From a virus: a stretch of 64,000 nt of DNA. Positions within the stretch are counted from its first letter, which is position 1; each line of letters starts with the position of its first letter. This document shows, in pieces, positions 3,001 through 63,107 of the stretch. The position numbers and the translations under genes are program-made. The notes under the pieces are model-generated. The model did no database searches. It saw only the letters and a list, made by a program, of their open reading frames with translations, and had not been told where the DNA came from. The stretch spans positions 32,001 to 96,000 of IMG/VR virus record IMGVR_UViG_3300021963_005267. One strand, written 5' to 3'.

Positions 3001-3052
3001 TAAAGCCATACACCAGCTTGCAGAAAAAATCAATGTATTAGAAAATAAATAA
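2..3052 (+). CDS. Long tail fibre (5' end outside window): GYTGS collagen-like repeats, eight 89/99-aa repeats, C-terminal intramolecular chaperone (Peptidase_S74-like)
   Basis: C-terminus SSSDITHKTNI...GLIANHVEQIIPELV...SLDYPKLVAPIIKAIHQL matches the S74 autocleaving chaperone pattern (Ser with Lys at +5); Gly/Asn/Thr-rich repetitive body. Confidence 0.85.
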   Translation: MIETGLAYTTNQTIKVSYNPSNYMTMNIVSYNDITGGIEATVYNSTGTGTYTSWVVNLEGAVGEVGYTGSQGYTGSSGAYAAVGYTGSQGVGYTGSQGNTGFVGSQGPAGGYTGSAGFTGSQGYTGSGSSVAGSNTQIQYNNNGVLGGSANLTWNQTTTTLTVTGNIYAPSEANASYPGAYRAGFFGSDGFLESNFSAGNGQNVYIAQGLTSGPGVPATSLYLGPDMNLNPANNANSNIYIGGGNNTSQIYLRGTSYLNNTMTYGPAVTGAPTGYTGATYRVGALYSDGTLQSFFSAGNGVNFYLAQGLTAGPGVNPTSLYLGPDMNFNPANSANANIYIGGGNNNSNLYLRSNVYFPNEANASYPGAYRAGFFGSDGFIESNFGAGNGQNVYIAQGLTTSTGPAPTNLYLGPDMNFNSTGNANANIYIGGANNNSLIYLRGVPYFPNEANPAYPGAYRAGFFDSAGGFESNFSAGNGQNVYIAQGLTAGPGVPATSLYLGPDMNLNPANSANANIYIGGANNTSQIYLRGSSYLQNTLTYAPAATSVSTGYTGTTYRVGALYSDGTLQSFFSAGNGVNFYLAQGLTAGPGVNPTNLYLGPDMNVNPNNGASANIYIGGANNNSLIYLRGIPYFPTEAAPTYPGAYRAGFFDSAGGFESNLGPANGLNVYIAQGLTAGPGVPATSLYLGPDMNFNPNNGANSVIYIGGANNNSLIYLRGVPYFPTEAAPTYPGAYRAGFFDSTGGFESNFSAVNGQNIYIAQGYTAGPGVPATNLLIGPDMNMSPVNNANSVIYIGGANNNSLIYLRGIPYFPNEANPAYPGAYRAGFFDSTGGFESNFSAANGQNVYIAQGLTAGPGVPATNLYLGPDMNMSPVNNANANIYIGGANNTSQIYLRGNSLVAPLSGVGNRAVYSNASGSLTNSSSDITHKTNIRALPYGLDEILQLIPVIFNWVNQTKYGSQEELGLIANHVEQIIPELVSTNNDGSKSLDYPKLVAPIIKAIHQLAEKINVLENK
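197..385 (+). repeat. GYTGS(QG) collagen-like Gly-rich peptide repeats
   Basis: Repeated GYTGSQG/GFTGSQG/GFVGSQG in translation. Confidence 0.85.
515..2692 (+). repeat. Eight tandem intragenic repeats of 267/297 nt (89/99 aa)
   Basis: GPDMN codons start at 671, 968, 1235, 1502, 1799, 2066, 2333 and 2600 (spacings 297, 267, 267, 297, 267, 267, 267); long near-identical DNA stretches. Confidence 0.95.
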
Positions 3053-52544: not shown

Positions 52545-53087
52545 ATGAGCTTAAGAGAACTTACCGCACAAAAACACAAAGAAGCCGAGGAAACTGCGTT
52601 TTCTCAGAAACTAGTATCAGGGCAACTTTCACAAGAAGCCTATGCAGACTACCTTTATCAAATGTTTCTAATCTACACAGGACTAGAAGCTGCTTGCTCT
52701 CAAAATGGTTTTTTGAGAGACATGGAAGGAATCCAACGTAGTCCACATATCTATGCAGATTGGCTAGAATTAAAAAGTGATAAAGAATATGAGTGGTTAC
52801 CAGAAACACATGCTTACTGGAATCACATAATGAATCTAAACGGACCAGAAAGATATCATCTATTAAGAGCACACCAATATACTAGATATCTTGGAGATCT
52901 TTACGGCGGTCAAATGATTGCTAGAGTAGTTCCCGGAGAAGGTCGTTGGTACCATTTCGATAATGCTAAACAACTAAAAGAAACTTTAAGATCACATCTC
53001 ACAGATGATTTAGCAGAAGAAGCTAATCTTAGTTTCGACATGACTATTGCTATCTTTAACGCATTGGATAAGAAACACAGTGAGTAA
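52545..53087 (+). CDS. Heme oxygenase
   Basis: LRELTAQKHKEAE (proximal His); HQYTRYLGDLYGGQMI (distal helix); EEANLSF. Confidence 0.92.
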   Translation: MSLRELTAQKHKEAEETAFSQKLVSGQLSQEAYADYLYQMFLIYTGLEAACSQNGFLRDMEGIQRSPHIYADWLELKSDKEYEWLPETHAYWNHIMNLNGPERYHLLRAHQYTRYLGDLYGGQMIARVVPGEGRWYHFDNAKQLKETLRSHLTDDLAEEANLSFDMTIAIFNALDKKHSE

Positions 53088-53760
53088 AGTTTGGGATACA
53101 TTGATCAGTGTACAACACCTATTAGAAAAAAGATTTAGTGAAACAGGTGTTGAAACATTTGAACCTGGAATGGATCGTTTTAATCAACCAGGTTGGGTAA
53201 ATAGAGTTTGGTGCAGTGATCATTATCGTAGAGCTCATGTCGATGTAGTGGACGCCCGAGAAACTAAGGGCCTCTGGATGATGCATTGCTGCATCTTTCC
53301 TCATATTCATAATACAGCACCTATATTCGGTTTTGATGTAATTGCAGGTAAAAATAAAATCACAGGTTGTTTTATTGATTATAGTCCGACAGCAGATAAA
53401 CAACATCCTATGATTGATTATTTTGCAGAGGAAGTTAGCAGATACGAATGGATTAAAAAACGAGAACTACCAGAATGGGCACAGCGTATTTTTAGTCCCT
53501 ACATGATAGCCGCAGGTAATGTACAAAATGAAGATGAATTAAGCCAGATCAGCAGCCTAGCACACATACTGGTAAATCATTACTTAGAAACAGTAGGTGA
53601 AACTAACAATCGAACTTCAGATACTACATTTGAGCAAAACTACTATGCTCAAAATCAAAAACAAAATCCTCATACTCCTAGAGTTATGACTAGTTTAGGA
53701 TTAGATGAAGAAGATGTTCGTGTTTTTATCCAGAATTGTCTGTTCCCAGAAATAAGATAA
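53080..53760 (+). CDS. Ferredoxin-dependent bilin reductase (PcyA family, PcyX-like)
   Basis: YRRAHVDVVD, MHCCIFP..APIFGFDVIAG, DYSP, RELPEWAQRIFS, QNYY..QKQNPHTPRVM; GTG start overlapping the HO gene. Confidence 0.85.
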   Translation: MSKVWDTLISVQHLLEKRFSETGVETFEPGMDRFNQPGWVNRVWCSDHYRRAHVDVVDARETKGLWMMHCCIFPHIHNTAPIFGFDVIAGKNKITGCFIDYSPTADKQHPMIDYFAEEVSRYEWIKKRELPEWAQRIFSPYMIAAGNVQNEDELSQISSLAHILVNHYLETVGETNNRTSDTTFEQNYYAQNQKQNPHTPRVMTSLGLDEEDVRVFIQNCLFPEIR

Positions 53761-53986: not shown

Positions 53987-54047
53987 ACTCATCTTATAAT
54001 TTCTTTCCAATTTGCTCTAAATACTATTACGGTATTCCGGGAGCGAA

Positions 54048-54590
54048 TTGATGTTAAAAAAAATAATAATAACACTAGCATTGCCTTCATTGGCAATAGC
54101 TGCACCTATTGGCGATTTCCAGTTTAAAAGTCCTTCTTTTAATGGTGCCGGTTATAGTTCTCACGTTTTAACTATTGATAATCTAGAACGTACTAGAGAA
54201 AAAGAACGTGCGGATAAACTACAGGCAGCAATAGATAAAGAAATTGCTGATAAAAAAAATACAAATCTTGCTAAGTTTGTTAACAATTTAGAATCACGCA
54301 TATATGCACAAATCTCGCAAAACGTAGCGACTGCTATGTTTGCCAATAATAATTGCACAGCCAGTTCAAATACAAATTGTACAGGTGCTATAGACTTCCA
54401 AGGCAATTATATCAGTTGGTCAAGAGTAAGTAGTGCCAATGATGCAAACTGTTCAACAGCATATGGTTATTGCATTATGCTGAAAGTGGCAGATCCAACA
54501 GCAACTAATCCTAGTACAGCAGCCTGTACCGACACAGGAATGAGTTGTGTCTATGTTCCATTACAATCATTTCAAATGCCGGGGAACTAA
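54048..54590 (+). CDS. csgF: CsgF-like curli assembly protein
   Basis: Signal peptide then DFQFKSPSFNG (CsgF FxFxxPxF motif); FVNNLESRIYAQIS; directly upstream of csgG. Confidence 0.75.
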   Translation: MMLKKIIITLALPSLAIAAPIGDFQFKSPSFNGAGYSSHVLTIDNLERTREKERADKLQAAIDKEIADKKNTNLAKFVNNLESRIYAQISQNVATAMFANNNCTASSNTNCTGAIDFQGNYISWSRVSSANDANCSTAYGYCIMLKVADPTATNPSTAACTDTGMSCVYVPLQSFQMPGN

Positions 54591-54593
54591 GAT

Positions 54594-55802
54594 ATGAAAA
54601 AGACTATTTTATCCCTAGCAATTGTAAGTTTATTATCTGGCTGCGCTGTGATGCAGGCTACTGGACATCTAGAAAAAGATCCAGAACTTGCACGTTCTAA
54701 TAAATCTGTTCAGAAAGAGTTTGATACTATACCTGGTCCACAAGCAGGTAAGCCATTAAGTGTAGCGGTATACAGTTTTACTGATAAGACTGGACAAAGA
54801 CGTCCACAGGCAAATATTGCCAGCTTATCAACAGCAGTTACACAAGGTGCAGAAACATTTCTAATACAGGCCTTACAAAATGTAGGGCGCGGAGAATGGT
54901 TCGATGTTGTTGAACGTGTTGGTATTGATAATTTAACTAAAGAACGTTTAATAATCCGTCAGATGCGAGAAGCATATGAAGGCAAGGATGCAAAACCATT
55001 GTTACCTATGCAATTTGCAGGTATTATCTTAGAAGGTGGTATTATTGGTTACGATCAAAGTACTACTAGTGGAGGATTAGGACAGCGTATATTTGGAATT
55101 GGTAAACAGACACAATGGAGTACAGACACAGTAACAGTGAGTTTAAGAGCAGTCAGCGTAAACACAGGAAAGGTATTAGCGACAGTAACAGTGCAGAAAA
55201 CTATCTTGAGTTCAGCAGACAGTGTAACTGCATTGAAGTTCTTTGATGCCGGAACGAAAGCGTTTGAAGCAGAAGCAGGCTTAACAATCAACGAGCCCGG
55301 AACTTATGCTACAAAAGCAACTATTGAAATGGCCGTAGTAGAACTTATTAAAGAAGGGCAACGCAAAGGTATTTGGGAATATAAACAACCTCAACCACCT
55401 GTTCCTCTAGCGCCAGTACCTCAAAAGGAAGAAGTTAAAGCACCAGTAATTTCTTCCGAAATAAAACAAACAGAGGAGAAGAAAGATGAGTTGGTTCAAT
55501 CACAAACCCTCCAGACACCCGAAAGAGCCGTCAGCACACCAGCCCCACAGGCTGAGTCCAGCGACGGACAAGATACTAAAGCAGACCAAGGAGAACGTAA
55601 GGCCTCTGAAAGTAAGCAAGAAAAAACAGTAATCTCTAAAGGCCTAACAAATGTTAGAGAAAGCGAAAAAGCTGGTTCGACAATAATTGCCTTATTGCAG
55701 CCAGGACAAGAAGTAAAAGTAATAGAAGAAAAAGATTTACTCTTTTGCATCGAATTACCAAATGGCAAGAAAGGTTGGATAGGAAAAACAACAGTAAAAT
55801 AA
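54594..55802 (+). CDS. csgG: CsgG curli secretion lipoprotein with Pro-rich linker and C-terminal SH3b-like domain
   Basis: Lipobox LSGC; VAVYSFTDKTGQ, STAVTQGA, WFDVVER..NLTKER.IIR, EGGIIGYD, DTVTVSLRAV, NEP; tail TNVRE...KKGWI. Confidence 0.9.
   Translation: MKKTILSLAIVSLLSGCAVMQATGHLEKDPELARSNKSVQKEFDTIPGPQAGKPLSVAVYSFTDKTGQRRPQANIASLSTAVTQGAETFLIQALQNVGRGEWFDVVERVGIDNLTKERLIIRQMREAYEGKDAKPLLPMQFAGIILEGGIIGYDQSTTSGGLGQRIFGIGKQTQWSTDTVTVSLRAVSVNTGKVLATVTVQKTILSSADSVTALKFFDAGTKAFEAEAGLTINEPGTYATKATIEMAVVELIKEGQRKGIWEYKQPQPPVPLAPVPQKEEVKAPVISSEIKQTEEKKDELVQSQTLQTPERAVSTPAPQAESSDGQDTKADQGERKASESKQEKTVISKGLTNVRESEKAGSTIIALLQPGQEVKVIEEKDLLFCIELPNGKKGWIGKTTVK
55486..55632 (+). CDS. Candidate 48-aa overprinted basic peptide in the +1 frame of the csgG linker
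   Basis: GAGGAG 7 nt before ATG; MSWFNHKPSRHPKEPSAHQPHRLSPATDKILKQTKENVRPLKVSKKKQ. Confidence 0.4.
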   Translation: MSWFNHKPSRHPKEPSAHQPHRLSPATDKILKQTKENVRPLKVSKKKQ

Positions 55803-55844
55803 CGGTACACCAAAAAAAATTATAAAGTACCAAGGAGCGAAAAA

Positions 55845-56888
55845 ATGCATAAAACAGATATTAGATTAATGGCCTTTGTAGCAAGCGCCATGTTTTGGGG
55901 TTCTGGGTATGCTGCGGACAACAGCATCTATATTGATCAGTCAGGAGACAATAGTACTATAACTATGACTCAGGATGGATCTGGAAACAAAGTAAAAGGA
56001 ATACTGGCAAACGGCACAGCAGGAGGCACAACAGATCCTGCCAAATTGACAGGTAATGCACAGACAATAAATGTTGAACAAATAGGACAAGGCAATTCAT
56101 TAGCTCTAGGAGCAAACACTACGCAAGGCGGAAGTGTATCGGGATATGCCAACGTAGGAGTTCACTTGAATTATCAAGCAACTGGCAATCTCAACACAGC
56201 ATTAATAAACATCAACAATAATGGCACTGGGACTGCCGCAGGTAATGTAGTAGATATACAACAAAGCGGAAATACCAACACAACCACATTGAGGATGACT
56301 GGAACTTCAAATCAATTTACAGTTAATACCACTGGCGGCAACAGCAATACAATAACAGCAGATGTTAATGCCAGCAATACAGTAACAACAATCAATCATT
56401 CCGGCGGTGGCGGAAATAATACCACAGTTGATATGACAGGCAACAGCGGTCAAGTTAGTGTGACTACCGTGGGAGCTAGTAATACAACCAGTGTGACACA
56501 GAGTGCATACAGTTCATTGGGATCACAGACACTAATTGATATAACAGGCTCAGGTAATACAACTAATGTAACACAGAGCGGCGTAGCCGATCATTACACT
56601 AACATTAAATTATATTCAGGCAGCAATGATAATAATATTACAGTTTCCCAATCTGGAACTTATAATCATTCTGCCGATATAACTTTAAGAGCAGGTAGCA
56701 GCACTAACACTATAGGTATTACACAAAGCGGTGGCGGAGCCTCTGGTGGTCAAACTGCCGTGTTAGAACTATTGGCTGGCAGTAGCAACAACAACGTTAG
56801 TATTACCCAACAAGGATCTGTTTCTAACTTGTCTAATATCAGGTTAAGTGGAAATAGCAACAACTATACTATTTTACAGAAAAATTAA
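55845..56888 (+). CDS. Secreted curlin-repeat protein (CsgA/B-like)
   Basis: Signal peptide; many (I/V)xQxGxxN repeats; very N/G/S/T-rich. Confidence 0.8.
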   Translation: MHKTDIRLMAFVASAMFWGSGYAADNSIYIDQSGDNSTITMTQDGSGNKVKGILANGTAGGTTDPAKLTGNAQTINVEQIGQGNSLALGANTTQGGSVSGYANVGVHLNYQATGNLNTALININNNGTGTAAGNVVDIQQSGNTNTTTLRMTGTSNQFTVNTTGGNSNTITADVNASNTVTTINHSGGGGNNTTVDMTGNSGQVSVTTVGASNTTSVTQSAYSSLGSQTLIDITGSGNTTNVTQSGVADHYTNIKLYSGSNDNNITVSQSGTYNHSADITLRAGSSTNTIGITQSGGGASGGQTAVLELLAGSSNNNVSITQQGSVSNLSNIRLSGNSNNYTILQKN

Positions 56889-56897
56889 GAGGGTTAC

Positions 56898-58007
56898 ATG
56901 AAATTATGGATGGTAATACTATGCGTTCCGTTGCTCAGTATATCGTCAAAAGTAAACGCAGCAATAGGGAAAGTAACAGAACAGGTAAATGCCCCGCCGA
57001 CCATTACCAGGCAGAATTCGACACTAACGGGATCGAAAGGGACTGGAGTGGAGATGAACGACGCCATAAAAACCCAACAGGGAAAGGTAGGAATAACTTT
57101 TGAGGATGATACTAAAGTACAGGTAAACGAAAATTCAAAATTAGTTATAGATGATTTTGTTTACGATCCTAAAAGTAAAAGTGGCAAACTAGGAGCTAAA
57201 ATAGCACTAGGCACCGTTCGTTACGCCAGTGGACAGATTGCTAAAAACAGTCCACAGAACGTAGCACTTAATACCCCAAGTGCAACAGTAGCCGTTCGAG
57301 GCACTGACTTTACAGCAACAGTAGAGGAACTAGGAGAAAGTACTATAATACTTTTACCTAGTTGCCCTAACGACCGTCCCACAAGATCTGTTAGAGATAT
57401 CGAAACCAATTGTAAAACAGGAACAATCGAAGTTAGCACAGACGTAGGTACTGTTATTTTAAATCAACCTTTCCAGGTTACTAAAGTTTTAAGTAGAACA
57501 CATCCTCCCACAGCACCTAAAGTTTTAAACTTATCTGAAATGGCTATCAGCAATCTGTTAATCATTAGTCCACCCGCAGAGGTTAAACGTGCTGTACAAG
57601 AACAGCATAAAATGTTTAATCCATTAGAATTTGATTTCTTAAAAGAAAAAGGATTAGAGAACTGGCTTGATATGCAGGCTAATTCATTTTATGATGATAA
57701 GTTTGCTAAAAACTTTTTAGATAATGGATTCTTAGCCAGCCTATTTGATATAATTGGTAATGCACTTGATGAAAAGTTTTTAGAACCAGTGGACCCAGTA
57801 CTCCCAGACTATAGAAAATCTAGTGGCATAGTAGCTTTTAAAGATGAAATGAGTGTTGAATTATGTAGAGACAATGGGGCGGATATTCAATGTGTCAAAA
57901 CACCATTAGCGCAAAACAGTACAATTTATCAAACACAAGGCACACTAGAATTTAAAAATCGTGTTAACCAAGGCGGTAATACTATTATTACCTTGATACA
58001 GAAATGA
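56898..58007 (+). CDS. Secreted FecR-domain protein
   Basis: IGKV, VEMNDAIKT, ITFEDDTKVQVNENSKLVIDDFVYDP, TPSATVAVRGTDF, GTIEVST. Confidence 0.85.
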   Translation: MKLWMVILCVPLLSISSKVNAAIGKVTEQVNAPPTITRQNSTLTGSKGTGVEMNDAIKTQQGKVGITFEDDTKVQVNENSKLVIDDFVYDPKSKSGKLGAKIALGTVRYASGQIAKNSPQNVALNTPSATVAVRGTDFTATVEELGESTIILLPSCPNDRPTRSVRDIETNCKTGTIEVSTDVGTVILNQPFQVTKVLSRTHPPTAPKVLNLSEMAISNLLIISPPAEVKRAVQEQHKMFNPLEFDFLKEKGLENWLDMQANSFYDDKFAKNFLDNGFLASLFDIIGNALDEKFLEPVDPVLPDYRKSSGIVAFKDEMSVELCRDNGADIQCVKTPLAQNSTIYQTQGTLEFKNRVNQGGNTIITLIQK

Positions 58008-59767
58008 CAAAAAGAATACTGCAATTTTTATTTGGATTGATGTTTTGCATCAGCGCATATAGCCAAGCTGTAACATACAATGCTATCGCTACCGCCTATG
58101 TAACTACAACTATCAGTCAGTATGTAGTATTTGACAGTAATATGCAACAGGGTGGAACTTTCACTATGAGTGTATTAGCACACAACGGTGGAGGTCGTGC
58201 TGGACAAAGCGACACGGCTAACGTAAAGATTGAATTCTACAACGCAAGCGGCGGACTGATAACTAGTGCAAATTCAACTTACAATGCTAACCTTCCAAAC
58301 CCCAATGCAGTTTGTGGCAACCCTTGTATTGACACTAGTGTTCCTTGGTCGACATTAACCATTAGCAAAAGTTTAACATCTGCTGAAGCCGCAAACGTTG
58401 CGTATGCTCGAGTTAGTATGTATGGTATTGACGGAAGTTATTGGGCAGGTGACTACGGTCCTTGGTATCGTGCTCCTACCTTTCAACAAAATGGTGGCGG
58501 TAACTTATTGTATAACCCAGAGTTTGGACCATACAATGGTATAACAGCACAAGGTTGGACAAGTAATCCAGGCTTTGGTGCTTGCCAAGGTGCGTGGGGT
58601 GGTAGCAATGCCTGTATTGTAAACAGCGATGGTGTTCCAGGATCTAGCACAGTAGGCCTAGTTGCTAACGCTAACGGCGGCGGCCCAAGTGCTACTGGTG
58701 GTACAACAAGTGGACAGCCAGGCGGGTACAATAATACAATGAGTGTAACCAATGCTGGTACAGGCGCAACAGCGGGCACAGCACCAAGTGCTCCTACAGT
58801 TACATCAACTACTACATCGTACACTTATAGAACAGTAGTCACTGGTAATACTACACGAGTATATAGAACTCTAGTAACTACAACAAATTACAGTGATGGA
58901 ACTAGTACATCTAGCAATGGAACAGAAGAATTGTATTACACAGCCGTAGTGACAACTAGCGAAACAAACGGTATTGTTGGCGGAAACCTCGCAACTACTA
59001 CAACCACTACAACTACTACAACATATAACAACGGAACACAGACAGTATCATCAAGCAACTCATATGTTTATTATGGCACAATTAATCAAACTAATGCTCC
59101 TGGAGATCAAATAGTTACAAGCGGCCCTGGTAGTACAGCAGGATACACAGGAACACAACAACAAAACCGTGTAGATAACTGGAACAATGGATCTGGACAA
59201 AATAAAAACAATTATTTGTATATTGATCAGGTTAGCGGAGATTCAAATACTGTGAGTGTGACACAGTCTACAACATCAGGAAAGAATCATACTGAAGCAA
59301 CTTTCTCTGGAGCCGGTAGTAATAATATCAACATTACACAAACAGGAACTAACTATCTTAGTCTTGAAGTCAATGGAGCATATAATACCGTAACTAGCCA
59401 ACAGTCAAATAACAGTACCTCTAGTAACTTTAAAGAAACTACAGTTATAGGTAGCAACAACATAATCAATACGAATCAAAAAGATAACGCTAATAAAATA
59501 ATGTTCACTACTGTTACAGGCAGCAACAATTCTGTCACAGCAGTCCAAGAAGGATCGGGAAATCACTATCTAGAAAATGTATTAACAGGTAACGGGCACA
59601 CAGTCACAGTAAATCAGAGCGGAAGTACAGCGAATAATGCCAGCTTGAATTTGACCAACTCCGGAGGTGCTGCTAGTGTAGATCTGCAACAGTCAGGCGG
59701 GAAGTCGTTCAATCTAATACAGAGCTGCACTAACCCTGCGGGCTGCACAACAGTGGTCCGCCAATAA
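58004..59767 (+). CDS. Large secreted protein: Cys/Trp-containing head domain, Thr-rich linker, C-terminal curlin repeats
   Basis: Signal peptide; LYIDQVSGDSN, ITQTGTN, VQEGSGNH, VNQSGSTANN. Confidence 0.75.
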   Translation: MTKRILQFLFGLMFCISAYSQAVTYNAIATAYVTTTISQYVVFDSNMQQGGTFTMSVLAHNGGGRAGQSDTANVKIEFYNASGGLITSANSTYNANLPNPNAVCGNPCIDTSVPWSTLTISKSLTSAEAANVAYARVSMYGIDGSYWAGDYGPWYRAPTFQQNGGGNLLYNPEFGPYNGITAQGWTSNPGFGACQGAWGGSNACIVNSDGVPGSSTVGLVANANGGGPSATGGTTSGQPGGYNNTMSVTNAGTGATAGTAPSAPTVTSTTTSYTYRTVVTGNTTRVYRTLVTTTNYSDGTSTSSNGTEELYYTAVVTTSETNGIVGGNLATTTTTTTTTTYNNGTQTVSSSNSYVYYGTINQTNAPGDQIVTSGPGSTAGYTGTQQQNRVDNWNNGSGQNKNNYLYIDQVSGDSNTVSVTQSTTSGKNHTEATFSGAGSNNINITQTGTNYLSLEVNGAYNTVTSQQSNNSTSSNFKETTVIGSNNIINTNQKDNANKIMFTTVTGSNNSVTAVQEGSGNHYLENVLTGNGHTVTVNQSGSTANNASLNLTNSGGAASVDLQQSGGKSFNLIQSCTNPAGCTTVVRQ

Positions 59768-59789
59768 ATACTTTTTTAAGGAGTATGCC

Positions 59790-60083
59790 ATGCGTACAGT
59801 TGCCGTGGCGTTCCTATTCTGCCTAGCAAGCTCTATAGCCAACGCACAATCATTCCAGAGCAATAAACCCGTAGTTTGTGATAACGTACAAAAAGTAATA
59901 AAAGCACTTGGTGAAAATTACGAAGAAAAACCCATTTGGATGGCTTCGGGCGAAAATACTAAATTTTCTCTATTTGTTAATCAAAGTACAGGAAGTTGGA
60001 CGATCATACAGTTTACTTCAGAAGTAGCCTGTATTTTGGGTGTTGGAAACGATAGCAAACTAGTACTAGGCAACCCGGTTTAA
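59790..60083 (+). CDS. Small secreted protein
   Basis: AAGGAG SD; signal peptide; KPVVC...TGSWTII...ACIL. Confidence 0.7.
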   Translation: MRTVAVAFLFCLASSIANAQSFQSNKPVVCDNVQKVIKALGENYEEKPIWMASGENTKFSLFVNQSTGSWTIIQFTSEVACILGVGNDSKLVLGNPV

Positions 60084-60100
60084 CATCAAATAAATAGTTG

Positions 60101-60244
60101 ATGTTAAGAAAAATCTTAATCATCAGCATAATTTTAACCATCACTGGATGTGCGGGAATCCGTTTCTGTAGCAAAGAAGAAAGCACTAAAACTGGATGTA
60201 AATCCTGGGACCCTGCCACTACGACCGGAGCCGCAAGTAGATGA
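60101..60244 (+). CDS. 47-aa lipoprotein (MLRKILIISIILTITGCAGIRFC...), not in ORF track
   Basis: Lipobox ITGC; ATAAATA 4 nt upstream; ATGA overlap with the cyclase gene. Confidence 0.6.
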   Translation: MLRKILIISIILTITGCAGIRFCSKEESTKTGCKSWDPATTTGAASR

Positions 60245-62292
60245 AAATCAATCTCAAAAAAATCTTAGTTAACCCTTGGACAGCACTACTCACTTTAGTA
60301 CTGATACTGGGGGTGAGATCTACAGATCCTACATTTGTTGAAAGTGTAAGATTACGTTACTTTGATACCCTAATTACTGCTAAAGAACCTACATATAATA
60401 ATATTGTCACGGTTAACATAGACGAAACAGCACTAGACAAGCACGGACAATGGCCGTTACCTAGAGCCGAGTACGCACATATTATAGAAGATCTATATTC
60501 TAGAAATGCAGGACTAGTAGTATTAAACATTCTTATGCCGGAAAAAGATAGAACAGGTGGAGATGCTGAACTAGCAAAATTACTCAAACAATACCCTGTA
60601 GTGTTAGGCTCTGCGCCCGCACAGCAGACAAAGAATCAACCACGTGTTCCCGGCTCAGCTGTTCTTAATCCGGAATGGTTGGATCAAATAGTACAGTATC
60701 CAGGATTAATTGCTAACATTCCTCAACTAGAAAATGCTGCGGCAGGTGTTGGTATAACAAATACACTACCAGAAGTTGACGGTGTTAATCGTCGTATGCC
60801 ATTGATCGTAACAGTAGATGACAAATTATATCCCGCACTAAGTTTAGAAACTCTTCGTGTTGCCGCAGGTGATTCAACATTCCAGGTTAAGCTGTTTGAG
60901 GGTGGAGTTGAGAAAATGCGCATTCCTAAGTTTGGTCCTGTAACTACAGACAATCTAGGACGCATATGGATTGACTGGAGTCAACAGTCACGCAGCTTTA
61001 GTTTAACTAAATTACCCAAAGACTTAGAAGGTGCTATTGTTATAGTAGGACCTACAGCGGCAGGGATAGGTAATCCATTGCCAACTAGCAAAGGAGCAGT
61101 ATGGCCGCACGAAGCACAGGCAGCTGTGATTGGAACAATGGTAAATGGTGTTGTTATAGAACGTCCTGATTATGCTGACGGTGTTGAATTACTTGCAATT
61201 GGATTAGCAGGTATACTTTTATTATTTTTAACAAGGTGGGTATATGTTGGATTGGCAACGACTATTATGTTGGGTGCTGGCGGTTATTTTATCAGCCAGT
61301 ATCTTTTCACTAATTTTCTATTCTTATTCGACGCTACTGCGTTTACCGTTGGAACAATATTGGTCGCTTTGCATGCCTACGGTGTCAAGTTCGTCTCAGA
61401 GTTCTTACAGAAGCAAGCCATAAAGAAACAGTTTGCTGGATACTGTTCTAAGGAAGTAGTAGAGATGTTACAAAAAGATCCAGACCTGATCAAGCGTGGT
61501 GTGCGTAAAGACGTTAGTGTTATGTTCAGTGACCTACGTGGCTTTACTCCTATTGGTGAACACTATGGTGATGATGTTGCCGGCCTAGGCAAATACATGA
61601 ACGGATACATGGATGCTATCAGTCGTCCTATTATGGACAACAAAGGAATGGTCATTAAGTATGTAGGCGATGCGAGTATGCACATACACGGTGCACCTAT
61701 CGAAGACCCTAACCACGCTCGTACAATTGTTGCTGTTGGTTTACAAATGTTAGACGCAGTTGATGCCTACACTAAAGAAATGGAGGCACAAGGTTTACCT
61801 CCTGCTGCAATGGGTTGGGGCTGTAACACTGGTATTGGCTTTATTGGCGAAATGGGCTCAACAGACAGACATAGTTACGACATTCTAGGCGACATGGTTT
61901 CAACAGCCGCACGTTTAGAAGCACGTTGTAAAGCATATGGTGTGCTATGTATTATTGGTGCTGAAACATACAACCGTACTAAAGATGATTTCTTCTATTT
62001 GTGCATTGACAACTTACAACCAAAAGGCAAGTCAGTGGCAGACTTGATCTATACAGCACTACGTCCTAACGGCGAGGATTGGACTAAGGATTTAGAACGT
62101 TACAATGAAATGCAAACACTGTATAAGTCTAAGAAATTTGACGAAGCGGCTGCTATGTGTAAGAAATTAAAAGGCACATTCGGAGGACAGATGGACAAGT
62201 ACTATAAGATATGGATCGAACGCTGCGATTTTATGAAACAGCAAGATCTACCAGATAATTGGAACGGCGAATTTATCGCTCACGAAAAATGA
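60241..62292 (+). CDS. CHASE2-domain membrane class III adenylate/guanylate cyclase
   Basis: IVTVNIDE..GQWPLPR, EVDGVNRRMPL (CHASE2); three TMs; MFSDLRGFT, IKYVGDA, GCNTG, YDILGDMVSTAARLE. Confidence 0.92.
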   Translation: MKINLKKILVNPWTALLTLVLILGVRSTDPTFVESVRLRYFDTLITAKEPTYNNIVTVNIDETALDKHGQWPLPRAEYAHIIEDLYSRNAGLVVLNILMPEKDRTGGDAELAKLLKQYPVVLGSAPAQQTKNQPRVPGSAVLNPEWLDQIVQYPGLIANIPQLENAAAGVGITNTLPEVDGVNRRMPLIVTVDDKLYPALSLETLRVAAGDSTFQVKLFEGGVEKMRIPKFGPVTTDNLGRIWIDWSQQSRSFSLTKLPKDLEGAIVIVGPTAAGIGNPLPTSKGAVWPHEAQAAVIGTMVNGVVIERPDYADGVELLAIGLAGILLLFLTRWVYVGLATTIMLGAGGYFISQYLFTNFLFLFDATAFTVGTILVALHAYGVKFVSEFLQKQAIKKQFAGYCSKEVVEMLQKDPDLIKRGVRKDVSVMFSDLRGFTPIGEHYGDDVAGLGKYMNGYMDAISRPIMDNKGMVIKYVGDASMHIHGAPIEDPNHARTIVAVGLQMLDAVDAYTKEMEAQGLPPAAMGWGCNTGIGFIGEMGSTDRHSYDILGDMVSTAARLEARCKAYGVLCIIGAETYNRTKDDFFYLCIDNLQPKGKSVADLIYTALRPNGEDWTKDLERYNEMQTLYKSKKFDEAAAMCKKLKGTFGGQMDKYYKIWIERCDFMKQQDLPDNWNGEFIAHEK

Positions 62293-62459
62293 TATATACT
62301 CCACTTGATTGGTGGATTGATTATTCAGTCTGGCTTATGCTACAATACAAGTTCATGATGCCTGCTAAAATAATTGGCATCAATGACGATATGCAAGAAT
62401 ACCTAAAATGTTTTAGTCTAAATGGAATAAAGCAACATAATATCTGTAGAGGATAAAAA

Positions 62460-63107
62460 ATGAAAGGCAGAATAGCCTTATTTGTGCATCAACCTAAATG
62501 TTCTGTTCAAAGCGGCAACGGAATAATAAAAGCTTTAAGCCCGCACTATAATTTTAAAATCTTTACAAAACATGAATTAGAAAAAGATTTCTTCGACGAT
62601 GTAGATATCGTATGCATTCCCGGTGGTATCGGTGATAGTGAAAGTTACAGATATCTAATGAAAGAACACAAAGACAAGATAAGACAGTTTGTCAGACGAG
62701 GTGGAAAGTACCTTGGAATATGCATGGGAGCATACTGGGCTGACAAACACTACTTTGATCTACTGTGCGATATACGTGCGGATCAATACATAACTAGGCC
62801 GGGTGCCGACACACGCAGGCCACATGCTAAAAATCAACGAGTATTATGGAAAGGTGAAGAATATAAAATGTTCTTCTACGACGGTTGTGCATTTTACGGA
62901 ATGGGTTTAGATACAGCTAAGATATGGTCATTATATCCCAACGGTGACCCTATGGCCATAATACAAGGACGTCTAGGATTGATAGGTTGTCATCCGGAAA
63001 GTGAACCACACTGGTATAACAGTTGGAGTTGGATGAACGGGAAATACCACAACGGTGAACATCACAAACTTCTGTTAGAGTTTGTAGATGAGCTTATGAA
63101 AAGTTAA
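62460..63107 (+). CDS. BPL_N / class I glutamine-amidotransferase-like protein
   Basis: CIPGG, GGKYLGICMGAY, GCHPE. Confidence 0.8.
   Translation: MKGRIALFVHQPKCSVQSGNGIIKALSPHYNFKIFTKHELEKDFFDDVDIVCIPGGIGDSESYRYLMKEHKDKIRQFVRRGGKYLGICMGAYWADKHYFDLLCDIRADQYITRPGADTRRPHAKNQRVLWKGEEYKMFFYDGCAFYGMGLDTAKIWSLYPNGDPMAIIQGRLGLIGCHPESEPHWYNSWSWMNGKYHNGEHHKLLLEFVDELMKS

Follow-up and report, generated by a model that had tools for sequence, protein, structure and literature searches.

Why would a phage encode a curli-type secretion pore next to a membrane-bound nucleotidyl cyclase? The question is raised by eight adjacent genes in a 64,000-nt stretch of viral DNA (the window), which corresponds to bases 32001–96000 of the 106,583-bp IMG/VR virus record IMGVR_UViG_3300021963_005267, with a CheckV completeness of ~30%. 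The block encodes CsgF, CsgG, two curlin-repeat proteins, an exported FecR-domain protein, two small exported proteins and a cyclase with a CHASE2 sensor domain. A viral module of type VIII secretion system (T8SS) genes including FecR and cyclase was already published in 2022 (PMC9599517), and the block of the window is a member of it, carried by a giant phage lineage and showing variant features. Tentatively, we favour the reading that the module would couple fibre export to an envelope sensor, which we hold to be quite possible rather than probable.

Gene order of the module across viral loci

Conservation of the block was followed in two sets of viral loci. A FecR-seeded search of IMG/VR gave 46 loci, and a CsgG-seeded search, blind to FecR and cyclase, gave 79. 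The order csgF-csgG-curlin-FecR is kept in 46/46 FecR-seeded loci, with the cyclase downstream on the same strand in 35/46 and on the other strand in 1/46; nine of the remainder end within 3 kb, and one locus (L039) has 5.3 kb downstream without a cyclase. In the CsgG-seeded set, csgF lies upstream of csgG in 79/79 loci, the FecR gene is found in 59/59 loci with at least 3 kb of downstream sequence, and, where 8 kb or more is available downstream, a full or contig-truncated cyclase gene follows in 44/46 loci (an automatic tally of 45 also counted a short upstream match, and 44 is used here). The first curlin gene always lies between csgG and the FecR gene (46 FecR-seeded and 59 CsgG-seeded loci). 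More than 100 viral loci share the core order csgF-csgG-curlin-FecR-(curlin)-cyclase. The first-pass annotation of the window had regarded the block as a complete set rather than orphan biofilm genes and had named a lack of co-occurrence of cyclase and FecR genes with csgFG as the outcome that would speak against it; that outcome did not occur, and the set is a conserved unit in both searches.

Relatives are also found among cultured phages. Using tblastn, homologues of the cyclase and CsgG were detected in Methylophilales phage Melnitz and Pelagibacter phage HTVC008M, where the annotated order (gp99-104 and gp014-019, respectively) is csgF, csgG, curlin, FecR/hypothetical, curlin/hypothetical, cyclase. 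A curli cluster was described in pelagimyophages (Zaragoza-Solas et al. 2020, PMC7029224), CsgGF was suggested as a possible lysis-timing pore (Buchholz et al. 2022, PMC9004378), and T8SS, FecR and adenylate cyclase, with a histidine kinase added in podoviruses, were reported as a viral module that is conserved, expressed and spread across the oceans (Wittmers et al. 2022, PMC9599517). According to the latter study, the module is of alphaproteobacterial origin, lacks CsgE and CsgD and has moved between phage families as one block, and FecR was read as an iron regulator. The first-pass annotation had likewise noted that csgF and csgG are already reported from some marine myoviruses. CHASE2 is unmentioned in PMC7029224, PMC9004378 and PMC9599517.

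The FecR protein and the CHASE2 cyclase

The partners of the cyclase outside phages were identified in the 80 bacterial loci closest to the phage cyclase. None of the 80 loci carries a csgF, csgG or curlin homologue within 9 kb. The ORF directly upstream of the bacterial cyclase matches Pfam FecR in 15/63, FHA in 16/63 and HlyD in 8/63 cases, and the downstream ORF encodes a class-II cyclic AMP (cAMP) phosphodiesterase of the metallo-beta-lactamase fold in 14/58, which fits cAMP as the product of the canonical enzymes. Comparable arrangements have been described: in Burkholderiales and P. aeruginosa, the gene of a CHASE2 histidine kinase is preceded by one for a LysM/FecR protein (PMC5192318), and in S. 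meliloti the FecR-domain gene smc02177 adjoins cyaD1, with deletion of CHASE2 in CyaD1 leading to constitutive cAMP synthesis (PMC5498481), and the outer-membrane protein NsrA is needed to pass signals to CHASE2 cyclases (PMC7529298). Because the same pairing recurs in bacteria without curli, FecR and CHASE2 proteins probably work as a functional pair, and the FecR protein and cyclase of the phage are likely to be a borrowed bacterial sensor pair.

The FecR protein of the window consists of a signal peptide, a FecR domain (aa 56-148) and a C-terminal part (aa ~150-369). Bacterial FecR partners match the phage FecR profile over hidden Markov model positions 4-150 only, and by this comparison residues ~150-369 are phage-only. 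Within the phage-only part, a Cys-pair region and a helical linker are followed by the C-terminal beta domain, which (aa 300-369) was modelled by AlphaFold2 (AF2) as six beta strands with a predicted local distance difference test score (pLDDT) of 77-86; the rest of the model is poor, with a mean pLDDT of 51.9 over the FecR domain. The last strand, with the consensus NRVNxGGxTxITLxQ followed by K, R or N in an alignment of 32 sequences, is among the best-conserved parts of the protein and is kept in 37 unique sequences and in Melnitz (...EVTIIQIN) and HTVC008M (...AITINQTN), at ~40% overall identity. It resembles the first curlin repeat of both curlins (QSGDNSTITMTQ and GDSNTVSVTQ). We infer that the C-terminal module may serve as an adaptor.

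In the cyclase, the CHASE2 domain spans aa 18-325 (PF05226), with hydrophobic stretches at ~aa 12-30 and 316-385. The catalytic residues, D431, K473, D477, D547, S554 and R558, were mapped and checked by alignment to solved cyclases, e.g. CyaB (3R5G). The metal-binding Asp residues D431 and D477, the specificity Lys K473 and the transition-state Arg R558 are invariant. The adenine-specifying pair is present as K473 and D547, bacterial relatives having Thr or Ser at the second site, and the transition-state Asn, found in 80/80 bacterial relatives, is replaced by Ser554 in the window and by Ser in 28/38 phage sequences. The resulting pattern D-K-D-D-S-R is shared by the window, Melnitz and 26 other phage sequences, and D-K-D-(T/S)-N-R by the 80/80 bacterial relatives, HTVC008M and nine other phage sequences. 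In a tree of the catalytic half, the Asp/Ser type forms one clade (support 100) nested among phage sequences, whereas the tree of the CHASE2/membrane half requires four changes, and a single clade is rejected by the approximately unbiased test (delta log-likelihood 522, p 0.0004). Pairwise identities differ in the same manner: the cyclases of the window and of locus L019 are 71% identical in the sensor half and 45% in the catalytic half, compared to 33% and 61%, respectively, for the window and Melnitz. This indicates a single origin of the Asp/Ser variant (Thr to Asp, Asn to Ser), which then spread as domains were swapped. The two catalytic-domain types (positions 61420-62292 in the window) were compared in loci L002, L013 and L040 versus L019, L036 and L003.

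Searching 185,579 species genomes for the Asp/Ser pattern gave ten hits, all on short contigs of metagenome-assembled genomes (MAGs) of mixed taxa. Cassette genes are present in each of the four hits whose upstream flank is usable (three csgF, csgG, curlin and FecR, and the fourth, which starts inside the block, curlin and FecR), which argues that the hits are binned phage DNA; the type was not found in genuine bacterial contigs in this search. The Asp/Ser catalytic domain looks phage-restricted and repeatedly exchanged between sensor backbones. The phage cassette contigs in GTDB species genomes (L209-L218) sit in MAGs assigned to Chitinophagaceae, Rhodobacteraceae, Pirellulales, Pelagibacter and others, probably through erroneous binning, and should not be taken for bacterial curli-cyclase operons. 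As the cyclase of the window carries the phage-only variant, its product and activity are uncertain. The cNMP_binding domain was not found in the window record and five relatives, two of them at least 92% complete, implying that the output must act on a host protein or an unrecognised domain. A stand-alone protein of ~100 aa, homologous to the C-terminal tail of the cyclase (profile positions 565-665), adjoins csgF in ~12/79 CsgG-seeded loci (L134, L143, L149-L151, L154, L155, L165, L183, L193 and others); it is absent in the window.

The gene block, its products and its carrier

The eight ORFs are all on the + strand (54048-62292), with intergenic gaps ranging from -4 to 42 nt, 3 nt between csgF and csgG, and an overlap of the lipoprotein gene's stop with the cyclase start. 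Coordinates and supporting matches are collected in Table 1. All eight products are envelope proteins: as read directly from the ORF translations, each has a signal peptide, a lipobox or membrane spans, with a signal peptide or lipobox on CsgF, CsgG, both curlins, FecR and the 97-aa and 48-aa proteins. Full-length matches to PHROGs families were obtained for CsgF, CsgG, the FecR protein and the cyclase, and homologues of the 97-aa and 48-aa genes occur each in 6/46 related loci. The first-pass description of eight co-oriented, tightly packed envelope genes with named domains is confirmed by the ORFs, Pfam matches, signal peptides and lipoboxes, and its gene starts hold except for csgF and the lipoprotein gene, where ATG 54051 (3 nt 3' of the TTG) and ATG 60101 (3 nt 3' of the listed start) are more likely.

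Table 1. Positions in the window of the genes and signals of the block, with the evidence for each
Feature	Position	Strand	Evidence and remarks
Late-type promoter-like motif CTAAATAC	54017..54024	+	~25 nt 5' of csgF; one-base variant, role inferred
csgF, 180 aa from TTG, signal peptide	54048..54590	+	Pfam CsgF E 1.7e-6; phrog_35372 E 3.8e-41
csgG lipoprotein	54594..55802	+	Pfam CsgG (PF03783) E 5.6e-47; lipobox LLSGC
First curlin-repeat protein, 347 aa, signal peptide	55845..56888	+	Pfam Curlin_rpt E 1.6e-4; ends ...NNYTILQKN
Exported FecR-domain protein, 369 aa	56898..58007	+	Pfam FecR E 4.1e-9; phrog_37870 full length, E 2.8e-118, 396 bits; ends ...NRVNQGGNTIITLIQK
Second curlin protein, 587 aa, signal peptide	58004..59767	+	BLASTP to first curlin; ends ...CTTVVRQ
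Secreted protein, 97 aa	59790..60083	+	ORF and signal peptide; phrog_25396 E 7.7e-4; own ATAAATAC motif at 59764
Lipoprotein, 48 aa (47 from ATG)	60098..60244	+	Lipobox ITGC; ATAAATAG motif at 60090
CHASE2-transmembrane-class III nucleotidyl cyclase, 683 aa	60241..62292	+	Pfam CHASE2 (PF05226) E 1e-39, Guanylate_cyc E 1.3e-14; phrog_35576 E 6e-187, 624 bits
Weak terminator-like hairpin	62300..62326	+	Directly 3' of cyclase stop; consensus scan only

The CsgG protein ends in a Pro/Glu/Lys-rich linker followed by an SH3b domain (aa 352-399, nt 55647-55790; Pfam SH3_3 E 3.3e-7), an extension that is variable, present in some relatives only and missing in Melnitz and HTVC008M. Given the location of the CsgG C-terminus, the SH3b domain is predicted to be periplasmic and may bind peptidoglycan. 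The first-pass annotation had found neither csgE nor csgD in the window; for csgE this holds, as CsgE (PF10627) was not found in the 106-kb record, which is ~30% complete.

The first curlin matches the NCBIfam models of CsgB (E 1.6e-5, 24.7 bits, cut-off 165) and CsgA (E 1.5e-3), both below cut-off. No Pfam match was obtained for the second curlin (587 aa), some relatives of which carry PF07012; its last ~190 residues (aa 396-587) repeatedly align to the first curlin (BLASTP E 0.001-0.005). Its layout comprises a beta-sandwich head (aa ~34-162), a Gly/Thr-rich linker, beta ribbons (266-341), curlin-like repeats (396-587) and a C-terminal Cys pair. For the head region (aa 22-345), 373 homologues were found, all within this phage group, and F5/8 type C or PA14 domains are additionally present in some relatives of the second curlin. 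As modelled by AF2, the head is a beta-sandwich with long ribbons. A Foldseek search with this model returned nothing at E <= 0.001 and weak lectin-like jelly rolls only, and a protein atlas gave CBM_4_9 and galactose-binding at scores below 0.9, which are leads only. An adhesive tip is plausible.

Copies of the motif [AG]TAAATA show a strong strand bias in the window, 24 being on the + strand and 6 on the - strand. Most stand 10-40 nt before gene starts (e.g. at 3045, 13733, 22941, 44858 and 59764), and the motif is probably the late promoter of the phage. Within the block, such motifs are found before the 97-aa gene, the lipoprotein-cyclase pair and, in variant form, csgF, a placement that suggests late expression in two or three transcription units. 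In the window, the exact T4 late motif TATAAATA is not enriched, a scan for sigma-70 promoters gave counts at or below shuffled expectation, and terminator-like sites in the consensus scan did not exceed shuffled expectation.

Contigs with a related block reach 212-338 kb, one of 338 kb having terminal repeats; the FecR protein of the window itself is also found on a 295-kb contig, and genes for a T4-type Gp23 capsid protein are present in the relatives of 328 and 338 kb. Near-identical DNA is present in estuary and aquatic metagenomes of several studies; no RNA data set containing the locus was found alongside them. Judged from these contigs, the carrier is a giant T4-like phage of roughly 300-340 kb in estuarine and fresh waters, of a lineage distinct from the ~140-150 kb marine pelagimyophages. 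No GenBank phage matched the 8.2-kb block in megablast, relatives being found at the protein level only.

Upstream of csgF, the window contains genes for a heme oxygenase and a bilin reductase and a 73-aa ORF. The heme oxygenase and ferredoxin-dependent bilin reductase (52545-53760) lie 0.1-2 kb 5' of csgF in most lineage relatives (loci L004-L032), which we read as lineage synteny with no sign of cassette membership. After the cyclase follows a 215-aa BPL_N/class-I glutamine amidotransferase-like gene (62460-63107), homologues of which are found beside or inside the cassette slot in several relatives.

Coupling of fibre export to sensing and its alternatives

In the reading that we favour, the phage would install the CsgG/CsgF pore in the host outer membrane late in infection, tethered in the window phage by the periplasmic SH3b domain. 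The pore would export the two curlin-repeat proteins, one of them with a lectin-like head, which would form adhesive fibres on the cell. The exported FecR protein and the CHASE2 cyclase would act as a bacterial-type periplasmic sensor pair, in which a C-terminal module acquired by the phage FecR, with a curlin-like strand at its end, may dock the sensor to the curlins or the pore; cyclase output would then be governed by the state of the fibre or pore. The cyclic nucleotide would act on a host receptor, because no receptor is encoded by the phage. Trans-envelope sensing by the cassette is plausible. A more specific version, a true fibre-coupled sensor in which the FecR module reports the fibre or pore state to CHASE2, the once-arisen and swapped Asp/Ser domain gives a changed output (nucleotide or kinetics) and the infected cell reacts to contact or superinfection, is in our estimate distinctly unlikely.

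Several observations weigh against coupling. The FecR-curlin, FecR-CsgG and FecR-CHASE2 contacts are putative. The three C-terminal strings on which the first-pass annotation had relied (NNYTILQKN, NTIITLIQK and CTTVVRQ) are exact, but the likeness between the FecR and curlin tails is short and statistically weak (hhalign P 0.014 over 11 columns; BLASTP not significant), and a pattern that matches these three proteins alone in the window was drawn up with their sequences in view and is purely descriptive. The AF2 monomer places the FecR tail inside the small beta domain rather than as a free strand. A wide search of PDB folds with the FecR model stayed below a Z score of 7 and turned up beta folds of Ig-like or tailspike-like kind but neither a curlin nor a FecR structure, a result that is uninformative and not evidence against a curlin or FecR fold. 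In the cyclase, Ser in place of the transition-state Asn could lower or change the activity. The cyclase also seems to have its own promoter motif, such that the two halves of the block may be expressed separately. Finally, the region between FecR/curlin 2 and the cyclase is a variable slot with 0.5-5.3 kb of unrelated cargo in relatives.

The content of this slot was recorded in loci L026, L027, L029, L046, L136, L140, L173, L176 and others. It includes GT4 glycosyltransferases, calcineurin-like phosphoesterases (four loci; candidate cNMP phosphodiesterases), RimK-type ATP-grasp enzymes and sugar epimerases, and a crude count of signal peptides on the cargo ORFs showed no clear pattern.

Unrelated cargo between FecR and cyclase in many relatives, separate promoter-like motifs and the FecR-CHASE2 pairs of bacteria without curli are what would be expected if two independent modules travel together, namely curli fibres for aggregation ('sibling capture') or as a superinfection shield, and a separate FecR-CHASE2 sensor that reprograms the host via cAMP on a periplasmic cue, with no physical coupling; fibre-centred hypotheses have been published (PMC7029224, PMC9599517). 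We consider such independence somewhat unlikely, given that the FecR gene always stands between the two curlin genes, directly after the first, that co-occurrence in the CsgG-seeded loci is near-perfect, that the phage-only C-terminal module of FecR is unseen in bacterial partners, and that the block has moved between phage families as one (PMC9599517). The proposal made for Melnitz from structure modelling and synteny (PMC9004378), that CsgG/CsgF was repurposed as a gated, pinholin- or secretin-like pore for lysis timing whose opening is regulated by the cyclase and FecR, is compatible with the late-type promoter motifs of the window and with the missing CsgE gate in the 106-kb record. However, CsgG is, by its lipobox, a lipoprotein of the outer membrane, where a pore leaves the inner membrane polarised; it is conserved together with two curlin-repeat substrates, not recognised as fibre genes by Buchholz et al., and the second curlin has a lectin-like head, in keeping with an external fibre. 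This proposal was rejected on account of the outer-membrane lipoprotein, the conserved substrates and the head, and is very unlikely.

The FecR domain name, the heme oxygenase and bilin reductase just upstream and the possibility that an ungated CsgG passes small solutes would suit a pore importing iron chelates or cofactors, with FecR as a regulator of the iron-citrate type, one of the suggestions in PMC9599517. Yet the FecR protein has a cleavable signal peptide and a periplasmic FecR domain only, with no anti-sigma N-domain or membrane span, and neither the extracytoplasmic function (ECF) sigma region 2 (PF04542) nor the TonB-receptor plug (PF07715) was found in three phage records (the window record and two near-complete relatives), on which grounds FecIRA-type iron signalling was rejected; moreover, stand-alone FecR proteins in bacteria partner with CHASE2 sensors, as seen in the upstream ORFs and in PMC5192318. 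We regard iron import as highly improbable. Hardly credible, in turn, is a role of the curlin-repeat proteins as virion fibres with the rest of the block incidental. Repeat-rich sequences with lectin-like heads do resemble the logic of tail fibres, and the module adjoins structural genes in HTVC008M and Melnitz. Virion proteins, however, assemble in the cytoplasm, and both curlins have Sec signal peptides and are encoded between a secretion pore and an exported protein; their repeats match the CsgA/CsgB models, albeit below cut-off, and no PHROG fibre family. The signal peptides, the position beside the pore and the lack of a PHROG fibre match led to the rejection of virion fibres.

Abundant among aquatic phages, those infecting SAR11 and OM43 included, the module gives their hosts a secretion system that they lack. 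For the window alone, the result is mainly confirmatory. Three points, the borrowed FecR-CHASE2 pair, the docking-type FecR module and the derived, recombining catalytic domain in most phage cyclases, would sharpen the vague label 'regulatory'.

Compared to the T8SS region of pelagiphages, the block of the window has the same gene order and domain content and likewise no CsgE, with protein identities to Melnitz and HTVC008M of 37-43% for FecR, ~46% for CsgG and 36-45% for the cyclase; the Melnitz cyclase shares the Asp/Ser catalytic type of the window. It differs in its much larger T4-like carrier, the SH3b fusion of CsgG, the 340-aa lectin-like head on the second curlin and the two extra small envelope genes before the cyclase. 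The histidine kinase that precedes csgF in the podovirus form is not present in the window and is not required of the myovirus form. With bacterial curli systems (CsgG, CsgF, CsgA/CsgB, CsgE, CsgC/H and CsgD), the block shares the CsgG lipoprotein, CsgF and curlin-type repeats with a Gln-ended last strand, whereas no CsgE was found, the repeats reach the CsgA/CsgB models below cut-offs only, and FecR, the CHASE2 cyclase and the SH3b and head domains are additions. FecI/FecR/FecA ferric-citrate signalling shares only the periplasmic FecR Pfam domain with the window. In the Burkholderia 'BiofilmReg' operon (response regulator, LysM/FecR, CHASE2 histidine kinase, DUF4136; PMC5192318), an exported FecR protein is likewise encoded directly before a CHASE2 sensor, but the output is a histidine kinase, LysM takes the place of the phage C-terminal module, and curli genes are lacking. 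The S. meliloti system of NsrA with CyaD1, CyaD2 and CyaK also combines an inner-membrane CHASE2 cyclase with a nearby FecR-domain gene; its cyclases are of the canonical type, there are no curlins, and the outer-membrane partner is a large beta-barrel receptor rather than a CsgG pore. In that system an outer-membrane protein is required for the outside signal to reach the cyclase, which provides a precedent for the route from the outer membrane through a CHASE2 cyclase to cAMP envisaged in the first-pass annotation.

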